Shown here in pieces: positions 500 to 25,677 of a stretch of 64,000 nt of DNA. The first letter of the stretch is position 1. Every line of letters begins with the position of its first letter. The position numbers and the translations under genes are program-made. Under the pieces are notes generated by a model. That model searched no databases. It was not told the DNA's origin and saw nothing but the letters and a program-made list of their open reading frames with translations. Source of the stretch: Spirochaetia bacterium (GTDB lineage: Bacteria > Spirochaetota > Spirochaetia > DSM-16054 > Sediminispirochaetaceae); assembly GCA_034520965.1 (NCBI GenBank), contig JAXHMY010000008.1, positions 32,001 to 96,000 of the forward strand, in the 5' to 3' direction.

Positions 500-2179
500 T
501 TGGAGTTATCCGAAGAAGTTAGAAGGCAATTAACTGCTCTCAGCGACGATTTTACTCATCAGCTGCCCAGCCGTGTAAAAGAGCTGCAGAAAGCTCTTTT
601 AACACTCAAAGAAACTGCCGATATAGAGGATATGAAGAACTTTCGACTCATGGTACATAAGCTTGCCGGCTCTGCCGCAACCTTTGGGCACGAGAACCTT
701 TCACTTGAAGCGAAGGAATTTGAGGCATATCTTGAAGGTTTTATTGAGGATGCGAATGCTCCCGCCCACAGTGAATGGGAAAAAGTTGAGCGGTATTTAG
801 AGCAATTGAAAACTGAAATCGGGGACGTTGATGATCTGGAGGAGCTGCAAGCTCCGGAGGAGTTAGAAGAACCTCTTACGACAGATCAAGAAGTTCAAGA
901 ACTATACTATCCTAAAAACATCTATCTCTTTGGTTTTTCAATCGATTTGGTGGTAGATCTCTCCAAACAGTTGGGTTTTTACGGGTATACGGTAAAAGTT
1001 CTCCCTGGGCTGGAAGAATTAGAAAAGGCCCTGGAATCCGGCAGTTCTCAGCTCATTTTTGTCCATACCCGGCAGTTTGGAGCGGCTGAGTGGTTTCAGA
1101 ACCGGCTGTCGCGACTTAAGAAGCGGTTTGTAAAAGAGCTGTATGTGGTGTTTATCTCAGAGGAAGATACTTTTGATCTGCGTCTATGCTCGGTCCGGGC
1201 CGGAGGAGATGCCTTTTATGTGCTGCCCCTGGATATCGGCCAGTTGATGGATAAAATTGAATCGCTTGTAAACCATGAAAAAGAGAATCCCTACCATGTG
1301 TTAATTGTAGATGATGACCAGGAGCAGGTTGCCTACTATGCGCTTTTACTGCAGCAGGCAGGTATGATCACTTCGGTGGCCTCCGACCCTATGAAAGTAT
1401 TAAGTGTTTTGGTGGAATCCAAACCCGACCTTATCCTTATGGATATTTATATGCCCGGCTGCAGTGGCACCGAGCTTACCCGTCTGTTGCGCCAGCATGA
1501 TGCGTTTATCACCATTCCCATCATTTTTTTAACCTTCGAATCATCAAGGGAGCGTCAGCTTTCGGCCATCCGGCAGGGGGGCGACGATTTTCTCACCAAG
1601 CCTATTAAAGCCGAGAACTTAATTTCGGTGGTAAGCCTGCGAGCCCAGCGTAATCGAAACTTGCGTTACTTTATGGAGCGGGATTCACTCACCGGACTTC
1701 TCAATCATTCCAACCTAAAAGAACAGTTGCAGCGTGAGGTAATGCGCTGCAGCCGTACTATTTTGCCCCTTAGCTTTGCAATGATCGATGCCGACCATTT
1801 TAAGAACGTAAATGATACCTACGGGCATCTTACCGGAGATCGTGTACTTAAATCGCTGGCGCGTATTTTGCAGGATCGGCTGCGGAGGACTGATATCCTC
1901 GGGCGTTACGGCGGTGAAGAGTTTGGGGTGATACTCCTGAATACCGATGCTGAGAAAGCAGTTGCGATTATGGATGAAATTAGGGCCAACTTTTCTCGGG
2001 TTATTCACCATGCAGAAAACCAGGAGTTTAGTGTCACCTTCTCGTGTGGAATAGCCTCTTTTCCATCAATAAAAAATGCGGCACAACTGAACGAGGCTTC
2101 CGACGAGGCTCTTTATGCCGCCAAAGAATCCGGCCGTAACCGGGTTATGCACTTTGATAAAATCTCAAAGCTCACTTAA
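500..2179 (+). CDS. Hpt-REC-REC-GGDEF diguanylate cyclase
   Basis: Hpt motif HKLAGSAATFG, receiver motifs VDDD / LMDIYMP / FLTKP, GGEEF with upstream RxxD (RRTD) I-site. Confidence 0.92.
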   Translation: MELSEEVRRQLTALSDDFTHQLPSRVKELQKALLTLKETADIEDMKNFRLMVHKLAGSAATFGHENLSLEAKEFEAYLEGFIEDANAPAHSEWEKVERYLEQLKTEIGDVDDLEELQAPEELEEPLTTDQEVQELYYPKNIYLFGFSIDLVVDLSKQLGFYGYTVKVLPGLEELEKALESGSSQLIFVHTRQFGAAEWFQNRLSRLKKRFVKELYVVFISEEDTFDLRLCSVRAGGDAFYVLPLDIGQLMDKIESLVNHEKENPYHVLIVDDDQEQVAYYALLLQQAGMITSVASDPMKVLSVLVESKPDLILMDIYMPGCSGTELTRLLRQHDAFITIPIIFLTFESSRERQLSAIRQGGDDFLTKPIKAENLISVVSLRAQRNRNLRYFMERDSLTGLLNHSNLKEQLQREVMRCSRTILPLSFAMIDADHFKNVNDTYGHLTGDRVLKSLARILQDRLRRTDILGRYGGEEFGVILLNTDAEKAVAIMDEIRANFSRVIHHAENQEFSVTFSCGIASFPSIKNAAQLNEASDEALYAAKESGRNRVMHFDKISKLT

Positions 2180-2208
2180 GCTGCCGGCACTAAGCTTAAC
2201 TATACTAA

Positions 2209-2913
2209 TTAAACTCCATATCCTCGTTTGAGCTGAATTTTCCACTCCAAAGTCCACTCCACATGCTCCCACCATCGGCGAAAATCCGGGCTGCAGCGCA
2301 GCGAGTACATTCCAATTCGTGTAGATTCCAGGCTTCTACCAGGTGAAAAATGCAGGCTGAGCTGTGCTATCTGCTGTGCGGCAGTCTGCAGCATATCGGC
2401 CCGCTCCCTGTCTTCAGACTCAGCTCTTTCCCCTTTCGCTTTTTCCGGTTCATTGGCCGCCAAAAAAATTCCCTCCGCCGCCGGAATCGGAGAAGCTCTC
2501 TCCGGAATGGGGGGGCCGGCTCCCTCTATAATCGTGGAGGCCGGTACCGGTGTTCGCCCCGCGGCATTAATCAGTTTCTGGAGCAAGTTCTCCGGCTGTA
2601 CAACTACACTTATATACAGGTGGCCGGCCCACAACTTTACTTCTCCAAACTCAATCCGAGGTGTATCGGGCGTCTGTGGTGCTTTGCCTGTGCTTTTCGT
2701 CACGGCATTATCCAAACCGCCGGCCCCGGTAGAAAAGCGGGCATACCCGCCGCTGTCTAACGGGCTATCGAACCAGGCCAGAGGAATCACCGGCTCAAAT
2801 GCCAGGGCGGAGGCCAGCCCCTGCGTCTGAAACAGCCGCTGCCGCAGGGCCTGCAGCTTCAGACGGGTCTGTTGATTGGGAATGATGGAAAGAAGGTAGA
2901 ATTCCTGCGTCAT
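2209..2913 (-). CDS. hypothetical protein
   Basis: Long ORF filling the gap between the DGC and the intergenic repeat; start chosen at MTQEFY; no recognisable motif. Confidence 0.55.
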   Translation of the reverse strand: MTQEFYLLSIIPNQQTRLKLQALRQRLFQTQGLASALAFEPVIPLAWFDSPLDSGGYARFSTGAGGLDNAVTKSTGKAPQTPDTPRIEFGEVKLWAGHLYISVVVQPENLLQKLINAAGRTPVPASTIIEGAGPPIPERASPIPAAEGIFLAANEPEKAKGERAESEDRERADMLQTAAQQIAQLSLHFSPGRSLESTRIGMYSLRCSPDFRRWWEHVEWTLEWKIQLKRGYGV

Positions 2914-2949
2914 TATTTGCAAAAGATGACACAATAAATTACATTGGTC

Positions 2950-3112
2950 AAATAGAAGGAGCTATTCTCATTTTGGATAGTGTAATTACACTATCCAAAA
3001 TGAGAATGCCTCCAAACGTTTAGATATATAAAAGTTTGCAAAGAAATTGATGCGAATTTTAAATTTGGAAGTCAGAAGACTTCCAAATTTAGAATCGCTG
3101 AAATAGAAGGAG
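2950..3112. mobile_element. MITE-like palindromic element, family 1 copy A, including flanking direct repeats
   Basis: Perfect 44-bp palindrome at 2964-3007, second hairpin at 3060-3091, direct repeat AAATAGAAGGAG at 2950-2961 and 3101-3112; inverted homologue near 26281-26373. Confidence 0.75.
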
Positions 3113-6102: not shown

Positions 6103-8577
6103 ATGAAGCGCTGGACGGTACACGCTTTCGAGGGAACTTCATGTTGTTCTGCCGACGGGATGGCGAATATTCTGGAGGTGTTTCGGCAGCACCGCAAGGG
6201 CCCGGTGTGTGTGGTTGTCTCGCCGAAAAACGATATACCTCCTGCGCTGCTTTCGTTGGTCGACCAGGCGATTGTTCGTGAAGAATCGCTCTGGGGTACC
6301 ATGGAAGCCCTCAGTCAGCAGATGTCGAGTTTAGCGGACCAACTTGTACCGCCGGACTACCGGCAGGATCTTGAGGCGGCCATTCGTGAGGATTTCCGAA
6401 ATATAGAAGATATCCTCAGAGCAGTATGGCTGGTTCGTGACTCTTCTCCCCGTACCCGTGAGTATATCAGCGGGCTTGGAGCGGTGTGGATTGCCCAGGT
6501 TTTTCATTCTCGCCTTAAGGCGGAGGGGTATTCCGCAAAATGGCTGGATACCCGCAAAATTATCAGCGTCCAACCCCAGGATTATGGAATCGAGGTGCAG
6601 TACGAGGATACCGGTCGTGCCCTCGGAGAGGTGTTTGATCAGGACAGCAATGAGGACTTTCTAGTGGTCACCGGAGGCCTCGGCCGGACTCTCGAAGGTG
6701 CGGCAACCTCCCTTGGCAAGGACGGCGCCGAACTTACCGCTACAATACTTGGAAACCTGCTCGATGCCGAAAAAATTACCCTGTGGAAAAACGTCGACGG
6801 GGTGATGAGTGCGGACCCGCAGAAGGTTCCCGGTGCCGAAATAATTCCGGAGCTCACCTATCAGGAAGCCACAGAGCTGGCCTATTTCGGTGCGGAAATA
6901 CTCCATCCGCCGGCCATGACACCGGCCATGATGAAGGGGATACCCCTGGCAATCCGCAACATCGACCATCCCCAGGCTCCTGGCACGGTTATCTCTTCTA
7001 AGGTAACATCATCCTCCAATAAGCCTGTGAAGGGCTTTTCAATAGTAAATGAAGTCTCCCTGCTGAATATAGAAGGGGCGGGAATGATCGGGGTGCCCGG
7101 CATATCCTCCCGTCTTTTTGCCTCGCTAAACAAGCAGGGAATCTCTGTAATCCTCATTAGTCAGGCATCTTCGGAACATTCGATTTGTTGCGCCATACCG
7201 GCCCATCAAGCCCGCCGAGCGCGGCAGATTGCCCGTGAGGCCTTTGCCGCCGAGCTGGAAAGTTACCGAATTAACTCGATCGAAGTAGAAGAGGAGTGCG
7301 CAATTCTGGCGGCGGTGGGCGACCAGATGTCCGGAATACCCGGTATTTCCGCCAAATTTTTTGGAGCTCTCGGAAAAGCCGGAGTGAATGTCCGGGCGAT
7401 TGCCCAGGGCTCCTCCGAACGGAATATCAGTGCCGTTATCGGCGCCAAAGATGCTGCCCGGGCACTGCGGGCGGTGCATGCCGGATTTTACCTGTCCAAC
7501 CAAACCTTGAGTATCGGAATCATCGGCCCGGGGCTTATCGGCAGCACCCTGCTCGATCAAATAGCCGGAGAATCCGAGCGCCTCAACCGCGAGTTCGGTA
7601 TCGATTTACGAGTGAGGGCTATCACCGATTCTAAAAAAATGACCCTGGCGAAAACCGGTATCGATATAGTCGACTGGAAGAAGGCCCTGACCGAGCGCTC
7701 CGAACCAACCCGTATGGATGCCTTTATCGCTCACGTAGATGCCGAGTATTTTCCCCATTCGGTGGTGATCGACTGCACCACCTCCGCCGACCTGCCCAAG
7801 TATTATGCGGGTTGGCTGCTGCGCGGCCTGCATATAATCACTCCGAATAAGAAGGCCGGCACCGCCCCTATGCCTGAATACCGGCAGATTATGAGCGAGG
7901 CAAAACAGCGGCAGCGTCATTTCTTATACGAAACAACTGTGGGGGCCGGACTCCCGATCATCGGGACCCTGCGTGACCTCATACAAACCGGAGATAAAAT
8001 CAAGCGTATAGAAGGGGTGTTTTCAGGAACCCTGGCGTACCTGTTTTGGAAGTTTAACGGAAGCGCTCCCTTCAGCGGCCTGGTTCAAGAGGCCAAGGAC
8101 TTGGGCTTTACCGAACCCGACCCCCGGGATGATCTGTCCGGAATGGACATTGTCCGTAAAACCGTAATCCTGGCCCGTGAGATTGGCTGGGATGTAGAGG
8201 TAGACCAGGTTCCGGTGCACAGTCTGGTTCCCAAAGAGCTGGAAGATGTGCCGGTTGAAGATTTTTTGGGAAAACTCTCCATGCTGGATGAAGAGATGAA
8301 CCGACTGTACGCGGAAGCTGAAAAAGAGGGCAATGTGCTCAAGTACGCCGGCATTATTGAGGCTGACGGCAGCTGCAAGGTAGAACTGCGCCCGTACCCC
8401 AAGGATCACCCCTTCGCCCGGATTACCGGCAGTGACAACATTGTGGCCTTTACCACCGAGCGGTACAACTCCCAGCCCCTGGTAGTGCAAGGGCCCGGCG
8501 CCGGACCGCAGGTAACTGCGGGAGGCGTGTTTGCCGATCTGCTCCGGCTGGCCGCCTACCTTGGGGCAAAGCTGTGA
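6103..8577 (+). CDS. thrA: bifunctional aspartate kinase/homoserine dehydrogenase (AK motifs degenerate)
   Basis: AK-ACT-ACT-HSDH architecture: SQASSEHSI, AIAQGSSERNIS, GPGLIG, TPNKK, YETTVGAGLP, TEPDPRDDLSG, GPGAG. Confidence 0.92.
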   Translation: MKRWTVHAFEGTSCCSADGMANILEVFRQHRKGPVCVVVSPKNDIPPALLSLVDQAIVREESLWGTMEALSQQMSSLADQLVPPDYRQDLEAAIREDFRNIEDILRAVWLVRDSSPRTREYISGLGAVWIAQVFHSRLKAEGYSAKWLDTRKIISVQPQDYGIEVQYEDTGRALGEVFDQDSNEDFLVVTGGLGRTLEGAATSLGKDGAELTATILGNLLDAEKITLWKNVDGVMSADPQKVPGAEIIPELTYQEATELAYFGAEILHPPAMTPAMMKGIPLAIRNIDHPQAPGTVISSKVTSSSNKPVKGFSIVNEVSLLNIEGAGMIGVPGISSRLFASLNKQGISVILISQASSEHSICCAIPAHQARRARQIAREAFAAELESYRINSIEVEEECAILAAVGDQMSGIPGISAKFFGALGKAGVNVRAIAQGSSERNISAVIGAKDAARALRAVHAGFYLSNQTLSIGIIGPGLIGSTLLDQIAGESERLNREFGIDLRVRAITDSKKMTLAKTGIDIVDWKKALTERSEPTRMDAFIAHVDAEYFPHSVVIDCTTSADLPKYYAGWLLRGLHIITPNKKAGTAPMPEYRQIMSEAKQRQRHFLYETTVGAGLPIIGTLRDLIQTGDKIKRIEGVFSGTLAYLFWKFNGSAPFSGLVQEAKDLGFTEPDPRDDLSGMDIVRKTVILAREIGWDVEVDQVPVHSLVPKELEDVPVEDFLGKLSMLDEEMNRLYAEAEKEGNVLKYAGIIEADGSCKVELRPYPKDHPFARITGSDNIVAFTTERYNSQPLVVQGPGAGPQVTAGGVFADLLRLAAYLGAKL

Positions 8578-8702
8578 ACCCCGGCAGTTTTGGAACCCGG
8601 AATTCCTAGCGCGGAGCGACCACACTTCAGAAAACACAGCTTTTTTTCCTAAAACCGCCGGATTGGTATAGACCTTTAGGCAAAAAATTGAAAAAGTGTT
8701 GT

Positions 8703-8730
8703 TTGACAGCGGTAAATTCCGTTGTACAAT
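8703..8730 (+). promoter_or_regulatory. sigma70-type promoter of the BMP ABC operon
   Basis: TTGACA (8703-8708), 16-bp spacer, TACAAT (8725-8730); SD AAGGAG upstream of ATG 8768. Confidence 0.55.
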
Positions 8731-8767
8731 GAACATTGTTAAACACACTAAAAAAGGAGTGGGTAGA

Positions 8768-9871
8768 ATGAAGAAAGCTCTAACAGTTTTACTTGTTTTC
8801 ATGCTTGCATTTTCACTATTTGCAGGTGGTCAGCAGGAAGGTGCCGGTCAGGGCACAGATGGCGGTGATGAACCGTTTAAAGTTGCGTTTGTGTATATTG
8901 GTATTCCCGGAGATCTGGGATGGACCTACGAACACGATCGTGGTCGAGAATATATGGTTGAACAGCTTGGTGATGCAGTTGAAACAACCTATATTGAAAA
9001 TGTACCCGAGGGTCCAGACGCTGCCAGAATCATGCGTCAGTATGCCCAGCAAGGCTACGACATGATTTTTGCGACCTCCTTCGGATATATGGATCCAATG
9101 CTGGAAGTTGCCCAGGAGTTTCCGGATGTATACTTTGAGCACTGCTCTGGATATAAAACTGCCGACAACATGTCCACCTACTTCGGTCGCATGTATCAGC
9201 CGCGCTACCTCTCCGGACTGGTTGCCGGTAACGCTACCGAGACCAACGTTATTGGTTATGTAGCCGCCTTCCCGATTCCCGAAGTTATCCGCGGTATAAA
9301 TGGTTTTACCCTGGGCGTACAGGAAGTGAATCCCGATGCAACTGTAAAAGTTGTATGGACCAACACCTGGTACGATCCGGTTAAAGAGCGTGAAGCTGCG
9401 GTTGCACTGCTGGACAGCGGTGCCGATGTAATCGCCCAGCACCAGGATACCACCGAACCACAGAAAGCAGCTGAAGAGCGCGGCGAAGTGAGTATCGGTT
9501 ATGATTCGGACATGGGTCAGTTTGTGGGTGATACCGTGCTGACAAGCCCCGTTTGGAACTTCGGCCCCTATTATACCCGTGTAGTGAGAGAAGCCATGAA
9601 CGACGAGTGGGAAACCCACCAGTTCTGGGGCGGAATTAAAACAGATGTAGTTCAACTTGCCGAGATGAGTTCCATGGTTCCCCAGGATGTACGCGATCTG
9701 GTAGATGCCGAGCGTGAAAAAATCGTAAGCGGCGAGTGGGATGTATTCTGGGGTCCGGTTAAAAACAGAAAGGGCGAAGTAGTAGTAGCAGAAGGCGAAA
9801 AAATGACTGATCAGGAAATGCTGAACATGAACTTTTTTGTCGAAGGCGTTGAAGGAACCCTAGACGAGTAG
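8768..9871 (+). CDS. BMP family ABC transporter substrate-binding protein (purine/nucleoside)
   Basis: Signal peptide, GDLGWTYEHD, FATSFGY, WTNTWYDP, IAQHQD. Confidence 0.92.
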   Translation: MKKALTVLLVFMLAFSLFAGGQQEGAGQGTDGGDEPFKVAFVYIGIPGDLGWTYEHDRGREYMVEQLGDAVETTYIENVPEGPDAARIMRQYAQQGYDMIFATSFGYMDPMLEVAQEFPDVYFEHCSGYKTADNMSTYFGRMYQPRYLSGLVAGNATETNVIGYVAAFPIPEVIRGINGFTLGVQEVNPDATVKVVWTNTWYDPVKEREAAVALLDSGADVIAQHQDTTEPQKAAEERGEVSIGYDSDMGQFVGDTVLTSPVWNFGPYYTRVVREAMNDEWETHQFWGGIKTDVVQLAEMSSMVPQDVRDLVDAEREKIVSGEWDVFWGPVKNRKGEVVVAEGEKMTDQEMLNMNFFVEGVEGTLDE

Positions 9872-9908
9872 CATACTCGCCCGGGAATAGAACACTTAGT
9901 AATCATAT

Positions 9909-9930
9909 AGCCCGGCCAATCGGCCGGGCT
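9909..9930 (+). terminator. intra-operon stem-loop after the SBP gene (partial terminator or mRNA stabiliser)
   Basis: AGCCCGGCC-AATC-GGCCGGGCT perfect 9-bp stem with weak U tract. Confidence 0.5.
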
Positions 9931-9969
9931 GTCTTAAAAGTCAAAATCTTTATAATATTGAGTACACAT

Positions 9970-11534
9970 ATGGAAACCGAAAAGAAGCCTATTTTGGAGA
10001 TGCGCGGTATAACTAAGCGTTTTCCCGGAGTAGTCGCCAATGACCACGTAGACCTTGAACTCTTTCCCGGTGAAGTGTTGGCACTACTCGGAGAAAACGG
10101 GGCCGGCAAAAGCTCTCTCATGAACGTATTAGCCGGATTGTACCGCCCGGATGAAGGGGCCATTTTTATCCGGGGAGAGAAAGTACAAATTGATTCACCC
10201 CGTGATGCCATGAATCTGGGCGTCGGTATGGTGCACCAGAACTTTATGGTGGTTGATACCATGACGGTGGCGGAAAATATCATCCTCGGATTAAAAGAGG
10301 TTTCAATGATCCCGGATATGGGAAAAATAAGTGAACGTATTCGGGAGATTTCCTCACACTACAATCTGAAGGTGGATCCAGACGCCTATATCTGGCAGCT
10401 TGGAGTAGGCGAGCAGCAGCGGGTTGAAATTCTGAAGCAGATCTACCGGGGTGCAGAGATTCTTATTCTCGATGAGCCCACCGCCGTGCTTACCCCGCAA
10501 GAGTCGGAGGAACTTAACAATATACTCCGTCAGATGACAAGCGAAGGAAAAGCAGCCGTATTTATTACCCATAAAATGGAAGAGGTTATTGCCTTTTCCG
10601 ACTGGGTCCGTGTATTGCAGGGCGGAAAGTTGGTTACGGTAAAACGAACCGCTGAAACAAACCCGCAGGAGCTTGCCCGTCTGATGGTCGGCCGCGAAGT
10701 GTTGTTTAGAATAGACAAGACACCGGCAGAGCCGAAGGACGTCATTTTAGATGTAGAGAATGTAGAAGCCAACGACGAGAAGGGTATGCCGGCACTGAAG
10801 GGCTTTCCCTGCAGGTTCGGCAGGGTGAAATAGTGGGTATCGCCGGAGTCGCCGGAAACGGGCAGCGGGAGCTGACCGAAGTAATCACCGGGCTTCACCC
10901 TGTCTTGAACGGAAGTATTAAAATAAACGGAAAAGATATGACCAACCGCTCTCCCCTGGCCATTATCCGCTCGGGAGTAAGCCATATACCCTCGGATAGA
11001 ATCGCGATGGGAGTTGTCGGTGATATGAGTGTGGCCAATAACCTGGTGATGAAGGGTTACCGCCGTGCACCAATTACCCATGGAGGGTTGCTCGATCCGC
11101 GCCGGATCCTCGACTTTGCAAAACGAATGATTGATTCCTTTAAAATTGCAACTCCCACCCCTGCTACTCATGTAAAGTTTTTATCAGGGGGAAATATCCA
11201 AAAGACCATTTTGGCCCGCGAAATTGACTCCTGCGGCGGGGTACTGGTAGCTGCATATCCCTCCCGCGGTTTGGATGTGGGGGCAACCGAGGCGGTGCGG
11301 AACGAAATGGTGCGGCAGCGAGACAGGGGCAGCGGGGTGCTGCTGGTCTCGGAGGATCTGGATGAGCTTTTATCGGTGGCCGACAAAATTGTGGTAATGT
11401 TTGAGGGGCAGTCCATGGGCGAGCTTAATTCCGCCAATGCGGGTGTGGAGATGCTCGGATTGATGATGTCCGGGGTAAGCAAGAGCAAGGCTGAAAAAGA
11501 GTATTACGGGAGTGATCATGCAACTGGTGTTTGA
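9970..11534 (+). CDS. nucleoside ABC transporter ATP-binding protein (two ATPase domains; frameshift near 10805)
   Basis: GENGAGKS, LILDEPT in the first ORF; GIAGVAGNGQ, LSGGNIQK, VSEDLDE in the second; one added T joins them. Confidence 0.9.
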
Positions 11535-13594: not shown

Positions 13595-13627
13595 ACAGGT
13601 CTTCGCTTTTGCGAAGACCTGTTTTTT
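13595..13627 (+). terminator. Rho-independent terminator between convergent genes
   Basis: ACAGGTCTTCGC-TTTT-GCGAAGACCTGT perfect 12-bp stem followed by Ts. Confidence 0.85.
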
Positions 13628-14745
13628 ATAAGTGTCGAATATAGCAGCGCCGCCGTTTGTTAAGGCGGGTTTCAAAATTTTTCATAATCGTAATGATGTT
13701 TGAATTATCTTCCAGCTCGCCGCAGGTTTGTACATACTCTATGCCGTAGTCTATACACTCCCGATAAAGTTCCGAAAGGAGAATTGCATTCAGTCCTCGG
13801 TTTTGGTAATCAGGGCGTGCACCAATCAGGTAAAATACCAATTCCTCCGGCTTTTTAAGGGTTTTGAGCAAATGCAGAAAACCGAATGGAAACAGCCGGC
13901 CGCCGGATTTTTGCAGAGGCTTCGTAAGGCGCGGCAGGGCAATTGCAAAACCCACCACCTCGTCGTTTTGATTGCTTAAGAGTTTTATGAAATCGGGATT
14001 TGTAAAAGTTAAATACTGTTTTATATAGCTCGTCCACTTGTGCGTCGGTAAGCTCTACCACCCCGTATAAGTCTGCGTAAGAGGCATTCAGGGCATCGAA
14101 GATCCCCTTCCCATAGGGCAGTGCGTCTTTCATACGATCAAAATGCAGCAGCTTAAGCTTATTCCGTTCTAACACCAGGTCTTTCATCCGGGTAAACTTT
14201 TCCCCTATCTGTTCCGGCACCTTAATTTCAAACTGCAGCCAGTCGACATCCTTTCTATACCCAAGCTGTTCTATAAGAGTCGGATAATAGGCATGGTTAT
14301 AAATCATCGGAAGCGTCCCCCGCTCTTTGAAGCCCTCAACCAATAATCCCTCTTTATCGAAATCGGTAAAACCCAAGGGCCCATGAACGGCTTCCAGCCC
14401 CTGCTCTCCGGCCCATGTCTCTACAGCTTCAAACAGGGCTTGGACTACATCCTGACGATTGACCGTATCGAACCAACCAAAACGCAGATATTTTTGCTTC
14501 CACTTTGCAATAAATTTATCATTGCGAATAGCTGCAATTCTGCCTAGCACTTGCCCATCCTCATAGGCGAGCCAATAGCGAGCTTCGCAGTGCTCAAAAG
14601 AGGGATTTTTGTGTTTCGAGAGGGTGTTTATCTCGTCAAAAAAAAGCGGTGGAACCCAATAGGGGTTATCTCTATAAAGAGAATAGGGGAATTTTACAAA
14701 AGTTTTAAGGTCACGGCGGCTTACAACCTCTTTCAGCTTTACCAT
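13626..14745 (-). CDS. GNAT-fold N-acyltransferase, YghO/bacterial ceramide synthase (bCerS)-like; frameshift near 14030
   Basis: FVKFPYSLY..NPYWVPPL, KNPSFEH, GRIAAI, RFGWFD, GPLGFTD..KEGLLVEGF, YNHAYY; C-terminal LIGARPDYQNRGL and ELEDN; about 372 aa when joined. Confidence 0.8.
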
Positions 14746-15011: not shown

Positions 15012-15829
15012 ATGACATTTCGAAGAAGCTTTCGCATTGCAGTGTATAGTATCGCTCTACTTCTGTTGACCACGGGAGTCTGGGCCGGAGGATCTCAGGA
15101 ATCGGACCAGACCACTTTAGCTAAAATCCAAGAGCAAGGCAGTTTTGTACTTGGTCTTGACGACAGTTTTCCTCCCATGGGCTTTCGCGGAGAGTCGGGT
15201 GACATTGTTGGATTTGATATTGATCTGGGTCGTGAAGTAGCCAAGCGGATGGGGGTAGAGCTCGAATTGCGCCCGGTTGACTGGGACGGGGTTATTCTTA
15301 GCCTGAACAAGGGCGATATCGATATGATCTGGAACGGTATGACTATTACCGAGAGCCGACAGGAGAAAATCGATTTTTCTAACCCCTATCTGGCGAACCG
15401 GCAAATCATAATAGTTGCGGACGATTCAAATTTGACTTCGAAAGCGGACCTCGCCGGCAAAACCGTAGGAGTTCAGATGGGCAGCAGCAGTGAAGAAGCT
15501 ATTAGCGGTGAACCCGAGGTGAGAGAAAGCTTCAAGGAGCTGACAAAAAGTATGCAGATAACGTAGTGGCTCTGCTGGACCTCAAGGCCGGACGCACCGA
15601 TGCGGTTGTGGTGGACGAAATTATGGGCCGTTACTACATCGGCAAAAGGCCCGGTGAGTACAAGGTGCTGAACGAAGACTTTGGGCGTGAAGAATACGGA
15701 ATCGGCTTCCGTCAAGAGGATGATGCCTTTCGCAAGAAAGTGGATGCAATTTTAAAAGAAATGAATGAAGATGGAACCACCGCTGAAATATCAAAAAAGT
15801 GGTTTGGCGAAGACATCGTTCTAAAATAA
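15012..15829 (+). CDS. polar amino acid ABC transporter substrate-binding protein (frameshift near 15548)
   Basis: GLDDSFPPMGF, GFDIDL, IDFSNPY; continues LKAGRTDAVVVDE...EEYGIGFR. Confidence 0.9.
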
Positions 15830-16491: not shown

Positions 16492-17249
16492 TGGTAATAG
16501 TGAAGCTAAGCAATGTTCACAAATATTTCGGAGATATTAAAGCGGTGGATGGGGTAGATCTCGAAGTGAAGGCCGGTGAGGTTGTTTCAATAATCGGTCC
16601 CTCCGGTTCAGGAAAAAGCACCCTCCTGCGCTGTATCAATCAGCTCGAGTCGGTAGACTATGGGCGGGTAGAGATTGAAGGGCAAGCCGTAGTCGAAGTG
16701 GATAGCAGCGGAAAGCGCAGTCACCTGGATAAAAGTGAAGTTCTGAAGGCCCAGAAGAAGCTGGGAATGGTATTCCAGCACTTCAACCTCTTTCCTCATA
16801 AGACGGTTTTGGAGAATATTATCGAAGCCCCAATGCTGGTTAATAAGGAGCCGCGGAAAAGCGCTGTCGAGCGGGCGGAGAAACTGCTGAAGCAAGTGGG
16901 CTTGGCGGATAAGCACAACGCCTATCCCTCCCAGATTTCCGGCGGTCAAAAACAGCGGGTTGCAATAGCTCGGACTCTGGGAATGGAGCCGGATATACTG
17001 CTCTGCGATGAACCTACCTCAGCCCTCGATCCTGAGCTGGTGGGAGAGGTTTTAGCGGTACTGCGGGACCTTGCCAAGGCGAACATGACCATGCTGGTGG
17101 TAACCCATGAGATGGCCTTTGCCCGTGAAATATCCAACCGGGTGATTTTCATGGACCAAGGAAAGGTGTTGGAAGACGGAAGCCCTGAGAAGATATTCAA
17201 GACCCCCGAGCACCCCCGTATCCGAGATTTCATCAGTAGGATGATCTGA
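16491..17249 (+). CDS. polar amino acid ABC transporter ATP-binding protein (GlnQ family)
   Basis: [40 protein letters not shown]. Confidence 0.95.
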
Positions 17250-18528
17250 TTAATGGTTCAAACCATGGGGAATTGAAGCAGGGAGTCGAATTACCCCCTC
17301 TATTAGAGTGTACCCACACTTTATTTTAGAGGAGGCCTGCCAATGCTTATCCCCCCATTTTGTCCCCATTCCGAATGTGAATATCACACCCAGCCACCTG
17401 ACCACGGGCGCTGGTACTACACCAATGGCAGCTACGAGACCCTGGCCCATGGCTCGGTCACCCGATTCAAATGCCTCGGATGCGGAGGAGGCTTTAGCGA
17501 GCAAACCTTCCGCCTGGACTACTATGTAAAGAGAAAGCTCGACTATCAGGTTATTTTCGATCACCTGACCAATTGCGGAGGAGTGCGTAAAACCGCCCGT
17601 ATAATGGAGGTCAGCCACCAAGCGATCATCAACCGCTTAGGCCGCCTCGCCCGCCAGGCCATCGCGCTGCAGGCCGATGTCCTCCAGGACTATGTTCCCT
17701 GCGAGGACCTGGTCACCGACGGGTTCGAGAGCTTTGTCAGCGATCAGTATCCAGCCGAATAACATTCACATCCTGGCCGGCAAGCGTTCACAGTTCTTTA
17801 TCACCTTCGACTATGCCCATTTGCGGCGCAAGGGAAAGATGACCGAGCTGCAGAAGGACGAGCGTGACCAGCGGGAGAGGCACTACATCCGCAAGAGGAT
17901 ATCCATCAGTCAGTCCTTCCTGCAGATTGTCGATCTGATCGAGCAATACGCACAGAAGCGGCGGTTTACCTGCCTCTACAGCGATGAGAAGCTTAGAGTA
18001 TCAAAGATTGGTCATGGGTTCGGATGTGCTCCAGAGCCTAAAAAGCGAGGGGAGGTTTGAGCATGTGAGAATCTCCTCCCTTTTGGCGCGCACCATCGAC
18101 AATCCACTTTTTTCTGTCAACTATCTGGACAGGCAATTCAGGAAGGATAATGCCAATCATGTGCGCGAGACGGTGCGCTTCTCCCAGAATGTGAATAACT
18201 GCCTTGAGCGCATGGCCGTCTACCAGCTGTATCAAAACTATTTTAAGCCCTTTCGCATCGGAGATCCATTTCTTCAGAACTTCTCCCATGCCGAGGTGGC
18301 CGGTGTGCCACGGGGTAAAATCGCAAGAGGGCTGCGGGGCATCTTTACCATGCGCAAGTTCTACACGCATGTAAAGCTCAACTGGTCGCAGCTGATGGTG
18401 TGGGCACGGATGACCGGAACCCTGGATAAGTTCGACGGGATGTACTGGCCCAAATATGTGTGGATGTAACCTCCCTTACTCGCAGCCGGCGTGTGGAAAT
18501 TCGCATCCCCCATGGTTTGAACCATTAA
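17250..18528 (+). mobile_element. insertion sequence, IS1/IS1595-like, with perfect terminal inverted repeats and TTAA flanks
   Basis: TTAA-TGGTTCAAACCATGGGG (17250-17270) and CCCCATGGTTTGAACCA-TTAA (18508-18528) enclose a transposase-like gene. Confidence 0.88.
17343..18469 (+). pseudogene. transposase (Zn ribbon, HTH, DDE-like), split by two apparent +1 frameshifts near 17752 and 17995
   Basis: CPHSEC...FKCLGC, GVRKTARIMEVSHQAI (HTH), VTDGFESF, LYSDEK, RETVRFS; about 374 aa when joined. Confidence 0.75.
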
Positions 18529-18628
18529 ACAATCTTTACTAAAATTCTCGATAATTACTTGCCTCTGCTTAGGTGAGATTACTATATTTCATAGAGACAG
18601 TAAGTTCTTATATGAAAAGGAGTCTAAA

Positions 18629-20980: not shown

Positions 20981-21009
20981 TTGACACAGCATTGCTAAGC
21001 CACTAGTCT
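20981..21009 (+). promoter_or_regulatory. sigma70-type promoter of the SDR-SPT operon
   Basis: TTGACA (20981-20986), 17-bp spacer, TAGTCT (21004-21009); SD AGGAG before ATG 21038. Confidence 0.6.
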
Positions 21010-21037
21010 ACACAAGTTCTTAATAGGAGAGGCAGGG

Positions 21038-21883
21038 ATGTATAAGTTTGCATTTCACAACGCTTTAATCACCGGCGGGTCCAGTGGAATCGGTTTGGCA
21101 ACGGCGCAAAAATTGGTAGAGAGCGGGGTGAATGTAATGTTGGTAGCCCGGGATTATGAGCGGCTTGGGGCGGCCAAGAGGCGGTTAGAGGAACGTGCGG
21201 CCGAGGGAGCTGAGGTTTTAGTTGTGGCGGTGGATGTGTCCGACCGAAAAATGCTAGAAAATGTGCTGGCCCCGCTAATAATGAATGGCATCCCGCCGGA
21301 TTTAGTGGTAAACTGCGCAGGGATGGCGTATCCAAACTATTTTGAACAGATTGACTCCGAAATTTTCGATAAAACAGTGCAGATTAACTTAACGGGTACC
21401 TGGAATATCCTCAAATGCGTGGTTCCGACCATGGGGCCGGGGGGCCATATTGTGAATGTATCCTCGGTGGCCGGTTTGGTGGGTACCTTTGGGTACACCG
21501 CCTACAGTGCGAGCAAGTTTGCTGTAATTGGGCTGAGTGAGGCTCTGCGGAACGAGCTGTCCCAGAAGGGTATTGGCGTGTCGGTGCTGTGTCCGGCAGA
21601 TACGGATACCCCTCAACTGGAGTTTGAAAACCGTACCAAGCCGCCGGAAACCCGGGCTATTTCCGGGAATGCCGGCGTGATGAAGCCTGAACAGGTGGCC
21701 GAGGCACTGCTTGCGGGAGTGCGGAAGAAGAGATTCTTAATTGTTCCCGGTGCGCAGGCGAAGCTGGTGTACCTGGCAAAACGCTTGGTTCCGGGATTAT
21801 TATATAGAATAATGGATCGGGAAGCAAAGAAATCGTTAATAGTTTCGCATGCCGCTGTACGGCATGCGAAACGACGAAAATAG
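21038..21883 (+). CDS. short-chain dehydrogenase/reductase, 3-ketodihydrosphingosine reductase (KDSR/TSC10)-like
   Basis: TGGSSGIG, VAR, NCAG, VSS, GYTAYSASKFA, and PADTDTPQLEFENRTKPPETRAIS...KPEQVA resembling the KDSR C-terminal signature. Confidence 0.8.
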   Translation: MYKFAFHNALITGGSSGIGLATAQKLVESGVNVMLVARDYERLGAAKRRLEERAAEGAEVLVVAVDVSDRKMLENVLAPLIMNGIPPDLVVNCAGMAYPNYFEQIDSEIFDKTVQINLTGTWNILKCVVPTMGPGGHIVNVSSVAGLVGTFGYTAYSASKFAVIGLSEALRNELSQKGIGVSVLCPADTDTPQLEFENRTKPPETRAISGNAGVMKPEQVAEALLAGVRKKRFLIVPGAQAKLVYLAKRLVPGLLYRIMDREAKKSLIVSHAAVRHAKRRK

Positions 21884-21905
21884 CCGTATCCGGCTATTTT
21901 CTTAA
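21837..21905. repeat. double-hairpin dispersed repeat, family 2 copy A
   Basis: GTTTCGCATGCCG/CGGCATGCGAAAC and GAAAATAGCCG/CGGCTATTTTC stems; near-identical copy at 28484-28552. Confidence 0.85.
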
Positions 21906-21925
21906 AAGCATAGGAGTGGGTGCAT

Positions 21926-23154
21926 ATGGAAAACAAACAGCAGGTTGCTGAGATGAACAAAAACATTTTTGACAAATGCTACGACTTTAAGGAAGCTGCA
22001 GAGGCACGTACTTCGGGTATTTATCCTTTTTTTAAGCCGATTGAGCGCAGTCAAGGGACAAAGGTGTATATTGAAGGCCGCGAGATGTTAATGGCCGGCT
22101 CAAATAACTATCTGGGTTTGGCCAACGATCCCCGCCTAAAAGAGGCCGCGGAGAAGGCGGTGGAGCGCTACGGAACCAGCTGCTCCGGTTCTCGCTTTAT
22201 GAACGGCACTTTAGATTTGCATGAGCAGTTTGAGGAGAAGCTGGCCGAGTTTGTGGGAAAAAAGTCGGCGGTCTGTTTTACCACCGGATATCAGACGAAT
22301 TAGGGGCGATATCCGCGTTAGTGAATCGGGGAGAACATGTGATCACCGATAAGCTGAACCACGCCTCTATTATGGACGGGATTTTTCTTACTTTTGGTAT
22401 TCATAAACAGGTAAACCTGCACCGCTACAAACATAACAATATGGAAGAGCTTGAAAAAGTTCTTAGCAAGATTCCTAAGGAAGAGGCAAAACTCATTGTC
22501 ACGGATGGTGTCTTTTCGATGGAGGGGGATATCGTACGTCTGCCGGAGATGAAACGGCTGGCCGATAAGTACAATGCCGGGGTGTATCTGGACGAGGCCC
22601 ATGCAATCGGTGTGATCGGGAAGAGCGGCCGGGGGACCTGTGAATACTACGGCGATTCCGACCTGGCGGATTTGATTATGTGTACTTTCTCTAAATCCTT
22701 CGGCTCGATCGGCGGCTTTGTGGCCGGAGAGCCTTCGGTAGTCGATTACATTAAGCATTTTGCTCGACCTCTGATTTTTAGCGCCTCCATGCCGCCGGCC
22801 AACATTGCCGCGGCAATGCAGGCACTTGAAATTATGAAGATAGAGCCCGAACGGATTCAACGGCTGCAGGTAATAGCCGACAAAATGATCTCCGGCTTCC
22901 GGTCCCTCGGTTTTAATGTGGGAACGGCGGAAACCCCGATTGTTCCGCTTATTATAGGCGACAATAACAAGACCTTTGCCTTCTGGAAGGTACTCTTTGA
23001 GCGGGGCATTTATGTGAATCCGGTGATTAGCCCGGCGGTACCACCCAACCGTTCGCTGATTCGCACCTCCTATATGGCCATTCACTCGGATGAGGAGTTG
23101 GACTTCTTTCTAGAGGTGGCCGCGGAGGAAGGCAAAAAACTGGGAATAATTTAA
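21926..23154 (+). CDS. spt: serine palmitoyltransferase-like PLP-dependent alpha-oxoamine synthase (frameshift near 22300)
   Basis: [28 protein letters not shown](L)[22 protein letters not shown]-lysine motif TFSKS, FSAS; one added T joins both ORFs (about 409 aa). Confidence 0.75.
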
Positions 23155-23209: not shown

Positions 23210-24397
23210 ATGAGTGAAGAATTATCGTATATTTTAGTAAGCCCTTATACAATTGCTAAAAGCCGGACCGGAGGAGTTATTTCGAGGCTTCTCTCCCGCC
23301 TTGATTTAGAACTGGTTGGAGCCCAGATGTTTGCACCGACTAAGGAGTTAGCAGAAGAGTATGCGGAGCTTATCCGTACCAGCGGTACCTTTACCCGTAA
23401 AATAACCGGTGAATTGTTAAGCAACTATGTACTGGAAAGCTTTTCCCCTTCTACCCGGCGACACAGAGTGCTGATGCTGCTGTTCCGAGGAGAGAACGCG
23501 ACTCGGAAGCTTTCCGATATCGCCGGAGCAATTTATCCGGAGAACCGCGGTGTCGAGTCGCTCACCGGTGAAACGATCAGGGATACCTACGCCGATCTTA
23601 TTATGGATCATGACGAGCCCGATAAGGTGCGCTATTTTGAACCGGCTGTGCTTACTCCGCGAACTCAAGAAGTGGCTCTGCGCAACATGAAGCTGTTTGC
23701 CGACTTTATTAAAGATGAACCAACAATAATTCATAATATGCAGTATCCGGACCCGAAGCAGATAGAGCGGACTCTGGTTATTATTAAACCCGACAACTGG
23801 CGCTACGCAAGCTCGAGGCCGGGGACAATTATCGATATGTTCAGCCGCACGGGGCTGCGTATTATCGGTGTGAAGGTACATCGGATGTCGGTGAGCGAGG
23901 CTCTGGAGTTCTACGGTCCGGTAAAGAACGTACTGCGGGACAAGTTGGCACCTGTATTCGGGAAAAAGGCGGGGGAATTGCTGGAAAATGAGTTTGGATT
24001 GAAACTCAGTGATCAGACTGTCCGTTTTCTTACCGAGTCTTTCGGTGTTGAATACGCTGAAGATCAGTTTTCTCAAATAGTTGAGTTTATGTCCGGCCAT
24101 AAGCCCGAGGAGGTGCCGGTTGATGAGCTGAACGAACATGGAAATGTAAAGTGTATGGCCCTGATATATGAGGGGGAAAATGCTGTCCAGCGGATACGCG
24201 AGGTTCTTGGACCTACGGACCCAATGAAAGCTCCCGGTGGAACGGTACGGCGTGAGTTTGGACGGGATGTGATGGTAAATACAGCCCATGCCTCTGATGC
24301 ACCGGAAAATGCACAGCGGGAAATGAAAGTTATTAAGCTGGAGCAGAACAGCTGTTTTCAGATTCTAAATGACTATATTAAGAGCCAAGAAGCTTAA
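23210..24397 (+). CDS. ndk: nucleoside-diphosphate kinase, long two-domain type
   Basis: ERTLVIIKPD, LGPTDP..APGGTVRREFG, NTAHASD (catalytic His); N-terminal degenerate NDK-like repeat. Confidence 0.88.
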   Translation: MSEELSYILVSPYTIAKSRTGGVISRLLSRLDLELVGAQMFAPTKELAEEYAELIRTSGTFTRKITGELLSNYVLESFSPSTRRHRVLMLLFRGENATRKLSDIAGAIYPENRGVESLTGETIRDTYADLIMDHDEPDKVRYFEPAVLTPRTQEVALRNMKLFADFIKDEPTIIHNMQYPDPKQIERTLVIIKPDNWRYASSRPGTIIDMFSRTGLRIIGVKVHRMSVSEALEFYGPVKNVLRDKLAPVFGKKAGELLENEFGLKLSDQTVRFLTESFGVEYAEDQFSQIVEFMSGHKPEEVPVDELNEHGNVKCMALIYEGENAVQRIREVLGPTDPMKAPGGTVRREFGRDVMVNTAHASDAPENAQREMKVIKLEQNSCFQILNDYIKSQEA

Positions 24398-25677
24398 TGG
24401 AAATTTTCGATGTAGTAATTGTGGGAAGCGGACCGGCAGGTTTAGGGGCCGCTTTCGCCCTGCTTGAGAAACGCCCGGGTTTATCTATTTTGATTCTCGA
24501 CCGCGAACAGTACTCTACCGGCGGTTTGCGGAATGACTGCAAGATGAACTTTACCTTTCCAATTGGCTTTCCCCAGGAAAATTGGGAGCGGGAAGAGGCT
24601 GAGCACTACCTCGAACTGGTCAAAGCGGTACTGAAACCGAATATTTTGCCAAAAAAGAATCTACTCACCTACCAGAAGCGGGCGGAACGGCTTGGGGTTG
24701 AGCTGCTGAATGTACAGCAAACCCACCTGGGTACCGACGGAGGCTTGGAACTGATAAAGCAGCTTACCGCCCGGCTGCAGGAAAAGGATGTGAAGTTTGC
24801 CCTGAAGGAGGAGATGCACGGGATTTCCGAGTCGGAGCACGTAATTCACACCGATACACGCACTGTTGGATTTAAGTCGCTTATTGTTGCCCCCGGCCGG
24901 CAGGGCTTCCGCTTTCTGCAGAAGGTTATGGATGATCTGAACGTTTCCTATGTCGATCATATTGTGGATATCGGAGTGCGGATAGAAACCCGGGTCGAGC
25001 ACTACCCGATAGTCACCGATTATTACGATCCGAAGTTTATGTTTCCCGGCAAGGTGCGCACCTTCTGTACGAATAGCGGGAACGCGTATGTGGTCCAGGA
25101 GCGCTACCACACTCAGCATAACGAGGTGTATCACTCGGTAAACGGACATGCCTACTCAAAAAAGAGGGGCAGCGGGAACGGGCTTGCTAATTTTGCTATG
25201 CTGAAGACGGTGAGGCTGACCGAGCCCTTGGCCAGCGGTCAGCAGTTTGCCGAAATTCTGGGTATGCAGGCGGATGTACTGGGCGGCGGGCGCCCCCTGA
25301 TGCAGCGGGTCGGCGATTTTCGGCTTGGAAAACGCTCGAAAGAGAGTACCTTCAACGGTGACCTGTACGACTATCAGCCGACCCTGAAAACAGCCTGTCC
25401 CGGAGATATAAGCCTTGCAATGCCCTCGAAGATTCTGCGCGGCATTTGGAAGTCGATGAAGCAGCTGGATACCATTATTCCCGGGATTCTGCATCCCAGT
25501 ACCATTATGTACTACCCGAAGATAAAACTGTATGCCAATAAGCCCCAATATATGGATAAACATTTTCAGGTAGTAAAAGATGTCTATTTTGCCGGAGACG
25601 GGGCAGGGACCAGCCGCGGCATCACCGCCGCATGGGCCAGCGGGATACGGGTGGCCGAAGGTATTCTAAGTAAATAA
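24397..25677 (+). CDS. FAD-dependent oxidoreductase
   Basis: VIVGSGPAG, HLGTD, VDIGVRIE, RTFCTN, VNGHA, AGDGAGTSRG. Confidence 0.85.
   Translation: MEIFDVVIVGSGPAGLGAAFALLEKRPGLSILILDREQYSTGGLRNDCKMNFTFPIGFPQENWEREEAEHYLELVKAVLKPNILPKKNLLTYQKRAERLGVELLNVQQTHLGTDGGLELIKQLTARLQEKDVKFALKEEMHGISESEHVIHTDTRTVGFKSLIVAPGRQGFRFLQKVMDDLNVSYVDHIVDIGVRIETRVEHYPIVTDYYDPKFMFPGKVRTFCTNSGNAYVVQERYHTQHNEVYHSVNGHAYSKKRGSGNGLANFAMLKTVRLTEPLASGQQFAEILGMQADVLGGGRPLMQRVGDFRLGKRSKESTFNGDLYDYQPTLKTACPGDISLAMPSKILRGIWKSMKQLDTIIPGILHPSTIMYYPKIKLYANKPQYMDKHFQVVKDVYFAGDGAGTSRGITAAWASGIRVAEGILSK

Follow-up and report, generated by a model that had tools for sequence, protein, structure and literature searches.

A KDSR-family reductase gene paired with a serine-palmitoyltransferase-like gene in a Spirochaetia genome: a candidate route to dihydroceramide

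Two adjacent genes in a 64,000-nucleotide stretch of DNA from a Spirochaetia bacterium (hereafter the window; GenBank contig JAXHMY010000008.1, positions 32,001 to 96,000) encode a short-chain dehydrogenase/reductase (SDR) of the KDSR family and a pyridoxal phosphate (PLP) enzyme that resembles serine palmitoyltransferase (SPT). The source contig, C8, is part of a 3.35-Mb, 9-contig genome that is 85.9% complete. Judged by sequence comparison, the SDR–SPT operon is real and conserved. From comparisons of this kind we consider it on balance probable that the two enzymes act in the order used by eukaryotes, with SPT followed by KDSR to give sphinganine, and that acylation by a GNAT-family enzyme related to bacterial ceramide synthase (bCerS) then follows.

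The reductase and the synthase

The first gene (21038..21883, plus strand) is a single open reading frame (ORF) for a protein of 281 amino acids, which was assigned to the KDSR family by motifs, profile scores, and a phylogenetic tree. It carries all of the motifs attributed to it in a preliminary description of this DNA, namely TGGSSGIG, NCAG, YSASKFA, and PADTDTPQLEFENRTKPPETRAIS...KPEQVA, and residues N117, S143, Y156, and K160 constitute the classical N-S-Y-K catalytic set of SDRs. After the second strand stands R38, as in mammalian KDSR, which we take to be the basic residue typical of NADP-dependent SDRs. Alignment with the KDSR of Saimiri (P0501; 43% identity over 230 amino acids, E value 2e-53) reveals a common PxDTDTP...ENRTKPxETRxIS...KPEQVA segment, so the resemblance pointed out in the preliminary description is indeed close. 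Identity to animal KDSRs ranges from 40 to 43%. A profile built from 14 animal KDSRs gives the SDR 216 bits and the next SDR of the genome 103 bits, and the protein is the best match in the genome for 4 of 4 animal KDSRs tried, with a reciprocal best match. When a profile of the C-terminal 171 residues is compared with single-domain PDB chains, fungal TSC10 (8jat) comes out narrowly ahead (90 versus 82 bits), whereas TSC10 ranks only 5th and 6th when the full-length SDR is used to search PDB sequences. A fold search with the structure model (pLDDT 94) returned a tie among the top SDR folds at Z ~30, and 8JAT was absent among the matches listed.

In a quick tree of 71 rows, the SDR and the animal KDSRs fall in one clade of 60 rows (SH-aLRT 98), and 11 other SDRs lie outside it. 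The proposed grouping with KDSR is therefore upheld by the tree as well as the profile. However, calling the protein "eukaryote-like" was an overstatement, because all 10 named animal KDSRs gather in a single branch of a clade whose remaining members are bacterial, unnamed, or archaeal. Note that the ingroup was picked by likeness to the query family and that fungal and plant sequences are absent from the tree. With 150 representatives at 50% identity that score >266 bits, 84 of which carry PxDTDTP, the family is large. Thus the window protein shares the post-catalytic signature and the clade of eukaryotic KDSR/FVT1/TSC10 (PDB 8JAT) but sits in prokaryotic branches rather than the animal branch. 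It also differs in having no N-terminal anchor. Neither the sequence nor the structure model has a hydrophobic N-terminal segment of the kind that serves as membrane anchor in eukaryotic proteins, and the best 19-residue hydropathy is 1.3, versus 2.9 in the comparison with eukaryotic KDSR. Transfer of the gene from a eukaryote was considered and is unsupported, since the SDR falls among prokaryotic rows of the (unrooted) tree. A KDSR-family protein from a Promethearchaeota archaeon (P0448) groups with the SDRs of family f60, which is described below.

Other sources of annotation proved less informative. No KDSR, bCerS, or CerR model was matched in NCBIfam and Pfam, and the automatic label "3-dehydrosphinganine reductase family protein" (given to Protein Atlas clusters, all bacterial, and to JGI homologs) was taken as a lead only and not as evidence. 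Among 17 long KDSR-type matches scanned, one is fused to an alpha-oxoamine synthase and one to an AMP-binding enzyme, and the partners in other fusions include a transporter, an epimerase, and a lactone oxidase; the first of these fusions, P0277, is a 744-amino-acid fusion of an alpha-oxoamine synthase with a KDSR-type SDR. Family membership and gene pairing together suggest that the window SDR would reduce 3-ketosphinganine with NADPH.

There is a published precedent for such a reductase in bacteria, the KDSR-homologous SgaC of Pseudomonas (PMC12134224). The Pseudomonas fluorescens MYb115 cluster comprises SgaA (a polyketide synthase), SgaB (an alpha-oxoamine synthase), and SgaC (a KDSR-like SDR) (PMC12134224). 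As in the window, an SDR homologous to eukaryotic KDSR is combined with an alpha-oxoamine synthase, and SgaC is proposed to reduce 3-KDS. The MYb115 pathway differs in being fed by a polyketide synthase, and the role of SgaC is proposed from context. Bacteroides thetaiotaomicron BT_0972 and the 3-ketocapnine reductases of Bacteroidota are SDRs shown to reduce 3-keto long-chain bases (PMC9278070, PMC11211663), with similarities to eukaryotic KDSR/Tsc10p of 16 to 30% (a range for candidates) and 21 to 27% in the respective reports. These reductases are reported not to be clustered with the synthase, whereas the window SDR shares an operon with an SPT-like gene and resembles animal KDSR much more closely.

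The second gene encodes the SPT-like PLP enzyme, and its reading frame is interrupted in the assembly. Its 5′ part (21926..22303, plus strand) comprises 125 codons followed by a stop, has NF047600 as its best model, and is 88% identical to residues 1 to 127 of the protein from a close relative (L018). The 3′ part (22303..23154, plus strand) comprises 283 codons with the motifs NHAS, DEAH, and TFSKS and was assigned by models and a tree. Both GIYPFF and TFSKS are present as had been described, but they stand in different frames because the frame changes at 22301–22303, a split that had been overlooked. TFSKS had also been offered as a motif that separates SPT from BioF and Kbl. This marker was rejected, as the bioF gene of a bioA-bioF-bioD operon (L100) reads TFSKS too.

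The assignment of the synthase instead depends on scores and phylogeny. The intact synthases of three relatives score 512 to 515 bits on NF047600 (SerpalmtaseCFB, the CFB-type SPT) and 387 to 389 bits on the BioF/Kbl model. The best PDB match is SPT from Sphingobacterium multivorum (SmSPT; PDB 3A2B, 8GUH) at 413 bits; BioF/Kbl reach 284 bits, sphingomonad SPTs 259 to 268 bits, and the cysteate acyltransferase 207 bits (the ranking reads 413 versus 284, 207, and 193 bits). Like SmSPT, the window enzyme is a soluble alpha-oxoamine synthase encoded by a single gene. The PLP-site set His138, Asp210, His213, Thr241, and Lys244 (SmSPT numbering; functional residues are from PMC10196870) is complete, and most substrate-site residues are kept, the retained positions also including Asn52, Gly80, Ser81, Phe83, Ser185, and Ser243. 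Unlike SmSPT, it reads CTFSKS for GTFSKS and is paired with a KDSR-type gene.

In a tree of 45 rows, the window synthase belongs to a spirochaete clade of 13 rows (100/100), which lies inside a group of 35 rows (99/97) that also takes in every protein from an spt cluster and those of Bacteroides and Parabacteroides. The second synthase of the same genome falls outside this group, as do BioF and Kbl. For this tree the window protein was read with an X at the break, the root was placed at the midpoint, HemA and the cysteate enzyme were left out, and references were assigned by annotation and synteny rather than by assay. The comparison suggested in the preliminary description thus places the enzyme with SPTs and away from BioF and Kbl, and the latter two identities were rejected on the combined evidence of tree and scores. 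A sulfonolipid (cysteate) route was likewise rejected, on 207 versus 413 bits, in an analysis in which cysteate synthase was not searched for. The second synthase of the genome is Kbl-like and is located on contig C3 beside an epimerase-type gene, an arrangement that we read as that of a kbl-tdh pair. An SPT-like gene also occurs on Priestia megaterium plasmids (L097, 6007–7221), is 50% identical to the spirochaete protein, and has no adjacent bCerS or reductase gene. By homology, the window synthase is predicted to condense L-serine with a long-chain acyl-CoA or acyl-acyl carrier protein (ACP).

Distribution of the pair, the bCerS-like gene, and CerR

Among 40 relatives from the same class, 22 carry the synthase (at least 466 bits), 21 the SDR, and 19 both. 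The two genes lie within 100 bp of each other in 17 of these 19, with the SDR preceding the synthase in the loci read. Among the closest loci, L016–L018 have the same gene order as the window and an SDR that is 67 to 72% identical. In L018 the SDR gene occupies 8001–8825, the synthase gene 8832–10061, and the GNAT gene 1948–3066. The synteny comparison that had been called for finds the pair retained across many families of the class. Of 250 genomes sampled from the phylum, 55 hold the synthase (at least 425 bits), 36 the SDR (at least 250 bits), and 16 both. All of these thresholds were placed at gaps in the score lists once the scores were known, and the SDR and CerR scans of the 250 genomes scored the best 8 to 10 candidates per genome.

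The bCerS-like gene (13626..14745, minus strand) was identified by homology as a double-GNAT acyltransferase of the bCerS/YghO family. The preliminary description had correctly recognized a gene of this type but had missed a frame change near 14031–14034. The gene stands outside the operon, 6.3 kb upstream of the pair and on the opposite strand; a GNAT gene lies 5 to 9 kb from the pair in L017, L018, and L080. Its product shares a family with the GNATs that Roseomonas, Sphingomonas, Streptomyces, and Escherichia coli carry in their spt clusters, references that were picked by synteny and are distinct from the characterized Caulobacter protein. No solved structure was matched by sequence. It is closer to the copy in a cluster of genome G017 (42%) and to a Prevotella protein (41%) than to the proteobacterial cluster bCerS proteins considered below. 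A bCerS-family gene is present in 16 of 16 family-level relatives, the GNAT is also encoded by Sediminispirochaeta bajacaliforniensis (P0153), and three-gene runs of bCerS, SDR, and SPT occur in G279 and G204. One E. coli strain was seen to hold a complete cluster of yghO, acyl-AMP ligase, reductase, ACP, SPT-like, and lptFG genes (L070, 752–8531).

A search of the genome for cerR, which had also been proposed, yielded no candidate: in this 85.9%-complete assembly the best score is 79 bits, versus 203 to 344 bits for held-out members of the profile. The profile represents 9 reductases that were found starting from a Streptomyces spt-bCerS-reductase operon, 6 of the 9 residing inside such clusters, and does not include Caulobacter CerR. 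At 215 bits or more, CerR is present in 3 of the 40 class relatives, in none of the 16 in the family, and in 25 of the 250 phylum genomes. The two reductase types were found together in no genome of either sample, and the 55 phylum genomes that bear SPT include 16 with the KDSR type and 17 with CerR. In G017, which has no KDSR-type match, an orthologous SPT from the same clade as that of the window resides in a cerR-bCerS-spt cluster. A hypergeometric test of the exclusion gives a nominal P of 0.0007, which we do not trust because related genomes are not independent and the thresholds were set after the scores had been seen.

The window can be compared with the Caulobacter pathway (Spt, bCerS, CerR) on these grounds. 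SPT-like and bCerS-family genes are present in both and near each other. In contrast to Caulobacter, no CerR was found, no gene for an ACP or acyl-AMP ligase lies beside the pair, and the bCerS-family gene belongs to a different subclade.

Frame changes, expression signals, and neighboring genes

The synthase is not one open frame in the assembly: a stop at 22301–22303 ends the first part, and translation would continue in another frame from 22303, one base being short. Relatives have single ORFs both for the synthase (409 amino acids; L016–L018) and for the GNAT (372 amino acids; L018, L025). We compared 285 ORFs from 400 kb of a genome of the same genus, which yielded 177 orthologs at 65% identity and 80% coverage, and found frame changes in 19 of the 177 (11%), a genome-wide rate that stands without a genome-wide control. 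In the region of the window, 3 of 14 genes change frame, whereas four relatives show no such change (0 of 8, 0 of 11, 0 of 8, and 0 of 5). Identity is 82 to 88% on both sides of each break, and the only stops are those caused by the shifts. One additional base appears at 22305 in contigs of sequencing runs X2, X3, and X21. Given the intact genes of relatives and the 19 frame changes among 177 tested genes, the two changes in the synthase and bCerS-like genes are most likely assembly errors. Frame changes likewise divide an ABC ATPase gene (9958–11534) and an amino-acid-binding protein gene (15012–15829), as would be expected if indels are frequent in the assembly.

A likely sigma-70-type promoter, TTGACA-17 nt-TAGTCT, precedes the SDR gene at 20981..21009 on the plus strand and is indicated by sequence and conservation. 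Both boxes are where the preliminary description had placed them and are conserved in 4 of 5 aligned relatives (L016, L017, L018, and L025, but not L004), with a variable spacer. A consensus scan of the window did not call this promoter, because its rule asks for 4 of 6 positions per box and the −10 box has 3. The ribosome-binding site of the SDR, AGGAG (21025..21029, plus strand), is invariant in 6 of 6 aligned sequences. RNA run X21 includes contigs on both the SDR and synthase genes; since these come from a relative and are contigs only, they show neither co-transcription nor level.

The last codons and the stop of the SDR are supplied by a REP-like double-hairpin repeat inserted at 21846..21905 (no strand assigned), which occurs at 34 genomic places and folds into two hairpins (−32.2 kcal/mol). 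A contig of run X1 skips 63 bases at this site, and the strain represented there is without the repeat. A run of T residues follows the second hairpin and could affect read-through into the synthase gene.

Downstream of the pair (23210..25677, plus strand), family and neighborhood comparisons place a nucleoside-diphosphate-kinase (NDK)-like gene and a gene for an FAD-dependent oxidoreductase. In family-level relatives the pair is likewise followed by the NDK gene, an arrangement that L007, L013, and L034 do not share. These two genes were rejected as pathway members since the neighborhood is not kept beyond the family, and they probably lie outside the pathway. The NDK-like protein itself (23210–24397) has 395 amino acids, roughly 3 times the usual length, and is ~90% conserved in the genus. 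Upstream, an insertion sequence at 17247–18533 has terminal inverted repeats and ~10 genomic copies of 86 to 96% identity; its two ORF pieces have no Pfam match, and its empty site is present in run X2.

The proposed route and its alternatives

In the route that we favor, the soluble PLP enzyme would condense L-serine with a long-chain acyl-CoA or acyl-ACP to yield 3-ketosphinganine, whose 3-keto group the KDSR-family SDR would reduce with NADPH in the cytoplasm to give sphinganine. The nearby bCerS-family GNAT would then N-acylate sphinganine to form dihydroceramide. The KDSR-type enzyme would thereby fill the place that CerR has in other bacteria. A hybrid route of SPT, KDSR, and bCerS had been put forward in the preliminary description, and the sequence checks support it with the exception that its third step, a weaker inference than the others, is the least secure.

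Several observations weigh against this proposal. The synthase falls short of the curated NF047600 cut-off (512 versus 640 bits), a value reached in none of 251 phylum genomes. It differs from SmSPT at Ser53, Ala79, Leu84, and Met271, and most of the SmSPT residues that it does keep are general to the enzyme family. The window GNAT is only 28 to 29% identical to proteobacterial cluster bCerS. Acylation by the GNAT is the weakest step because bCerS-like genes occur without SPT (in 7 of 8 genomes of genus g29) and because four genomes with the SDR–SPT pair (G021, G039, G126, and G251, two of them single-contig genomes) have no bCerS match. A cerR gene could be missing from the assembly, given that the genome is 86% complete, and 22 of the 55 SPT-bearing phylum genomes have neither reductase at the thresholds used. 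Moreover, the KDSR-type family is not tied to SPT, as among the 36 phylum genomes with this SDR, 20 lack an SPT-like gene that reaches 425 bits. In 8 of these 20, a synthase that scores lower and does not belong to the SPT group lies 3 to 4 kb from the SDR, and in 1 the synthase is cut by a contig end. Elsewhere the KDSR-type SDR adjoins epimerase-type genes in loci without a synthase (L019, L020, L091, and L093). Finally, the inserted base at 22305 was not found in the closest run, X1, among the matches listed.

Some of these points would suit an enzyme pair that makes and reduces a different alpha-oxoamine, such as a 1-deoxy base from alanine or glycine, or a product built from some other amino acid or from an uncommon acyl donor, or a pair whose pathway ends at the free long-chain base, with a GNAT whose acceptor is unrelated. 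The score below the curated cut-off, the substitutions near the substrate site, and the four pair-bearing genomes without bCerS all fit such a pathway, and binding of Ala, Gly, Thr, and homoserine is reported for SmSPT itself (PMC10196870). Moreover, fusion P0277 and family f60 combine the SDR family with synthases of a second clade that is not part of the SPT group. Nevertheless, we regard this alternative as unlikely, though it deserves serious attention, because SmSPT leads any other solved family member by 129 bits and the cysteate enzyme by 206 bits, the orthologous G017 synthase is found in a canonical cerR-bCerS-spt cluster, and bCerS-family genes occur in every one of the family-level relatives. 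In family f60 itself (L040–L043), a KDSR-type SDR accompanies a 610-amino-acid gene product and an alpha-oxoamine synthase that is divergent and falls outside the SPT group, and a bCerS-family gene adjoins this module in L040 and L041. The module could make a different amino-lipid.

The order of steps is a further matter. The order in bacterial ceramide synthesis is disputed, with Caulobacter CerR placed in the periplasm (PMC11087976), and both routes are drawn for Prevotella (PMC10865984). If acylation came first, as in Caulobacter, then SPT and bCerS would generate a 3-oxo-ceramide for the SDR to reduce as a direct replacement for CerR. Such an order would accord with the finding that characterized bCerS works before the reductase (PMC11087976), with the separate occurrence of the KDSR type and CerR in our samples, and with the position of the SDR between bCerS and SPT in G279 and G204. 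However, characterized KDSR-family enzymes act on the free ketobase (PMC9278070), and the pair is kept in complete genomes without a bCerS match, in which the SDR would find no oxo-ceramide substrate; this retention favors the free ketobase as the SDR substrate. We therefore hold acylation before reduction to be rather unlikely. It is highly improbable that the pathway is dead in this strain through real frame changes in the synthase and GNAT genes. Two genes of one pathway are broken, the GNAT break lies outside any homopolymer, and no inserted base is among the matches listed for X1, but 11% of tested orthologs have frame changes (an example being the amino-acid-binding protein gene of the same region), the sequences flanking each break are well conserved with no stops other than those the shifts create, and the genes are intact in L025, a much closer relative.

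The kind of pathway proposed is a known one, and what is surprising is the phylum and the choice of enzyme. Spt-like genes have been extended to 38 phyla, and replacement of bCerS or CerR by other proteins has been raised (PMC11334938); the string "spiroch" is absent from the main text of that paper and its preprint, whose supplement may list the phylum. Our literature search, to which subscription journals were mostly inaccessible, found neither a report of spirochaetes making sphingolipids de novo nor one of SPT-KDSR operons. An operon of SPT with a true KDSR-family gene, in genomes without CerR, offers a direct test of a reduce-first route that would need just two small soluble enzymes.

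LpxC was not found in any of 41 class genomes (G000–G040), and by analogy with Sphingomonas the predicted lipids could matter for the outer membrane. This link is indirect, because members of the class without SPT are also without LpxC. More tentatively, and with considerable doubt, we suggest that the KDSR family is old, mainly prokaryotic, and interchangeable with CerR beside SPT, and that in many Spirochaetia without LpxC it works together with a bacterial ceramide synthase to supply the outer membrane with dihydroceramide built in the eukaryotic order of steps. The finding also bears on the origin of eukaryotic KDSR, given that the prokaryotic family in which animal KDSRs are nested has a Promethearchaeota member. 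Eukaryotic KDSR would then be one branch of this family, such that the second step of the eukaryotic pathway would have direct prokaryotic orthologs and not only convergent analogs. If the favored route is correct, this class of spirochaetes would join the producers of sphingolipids.

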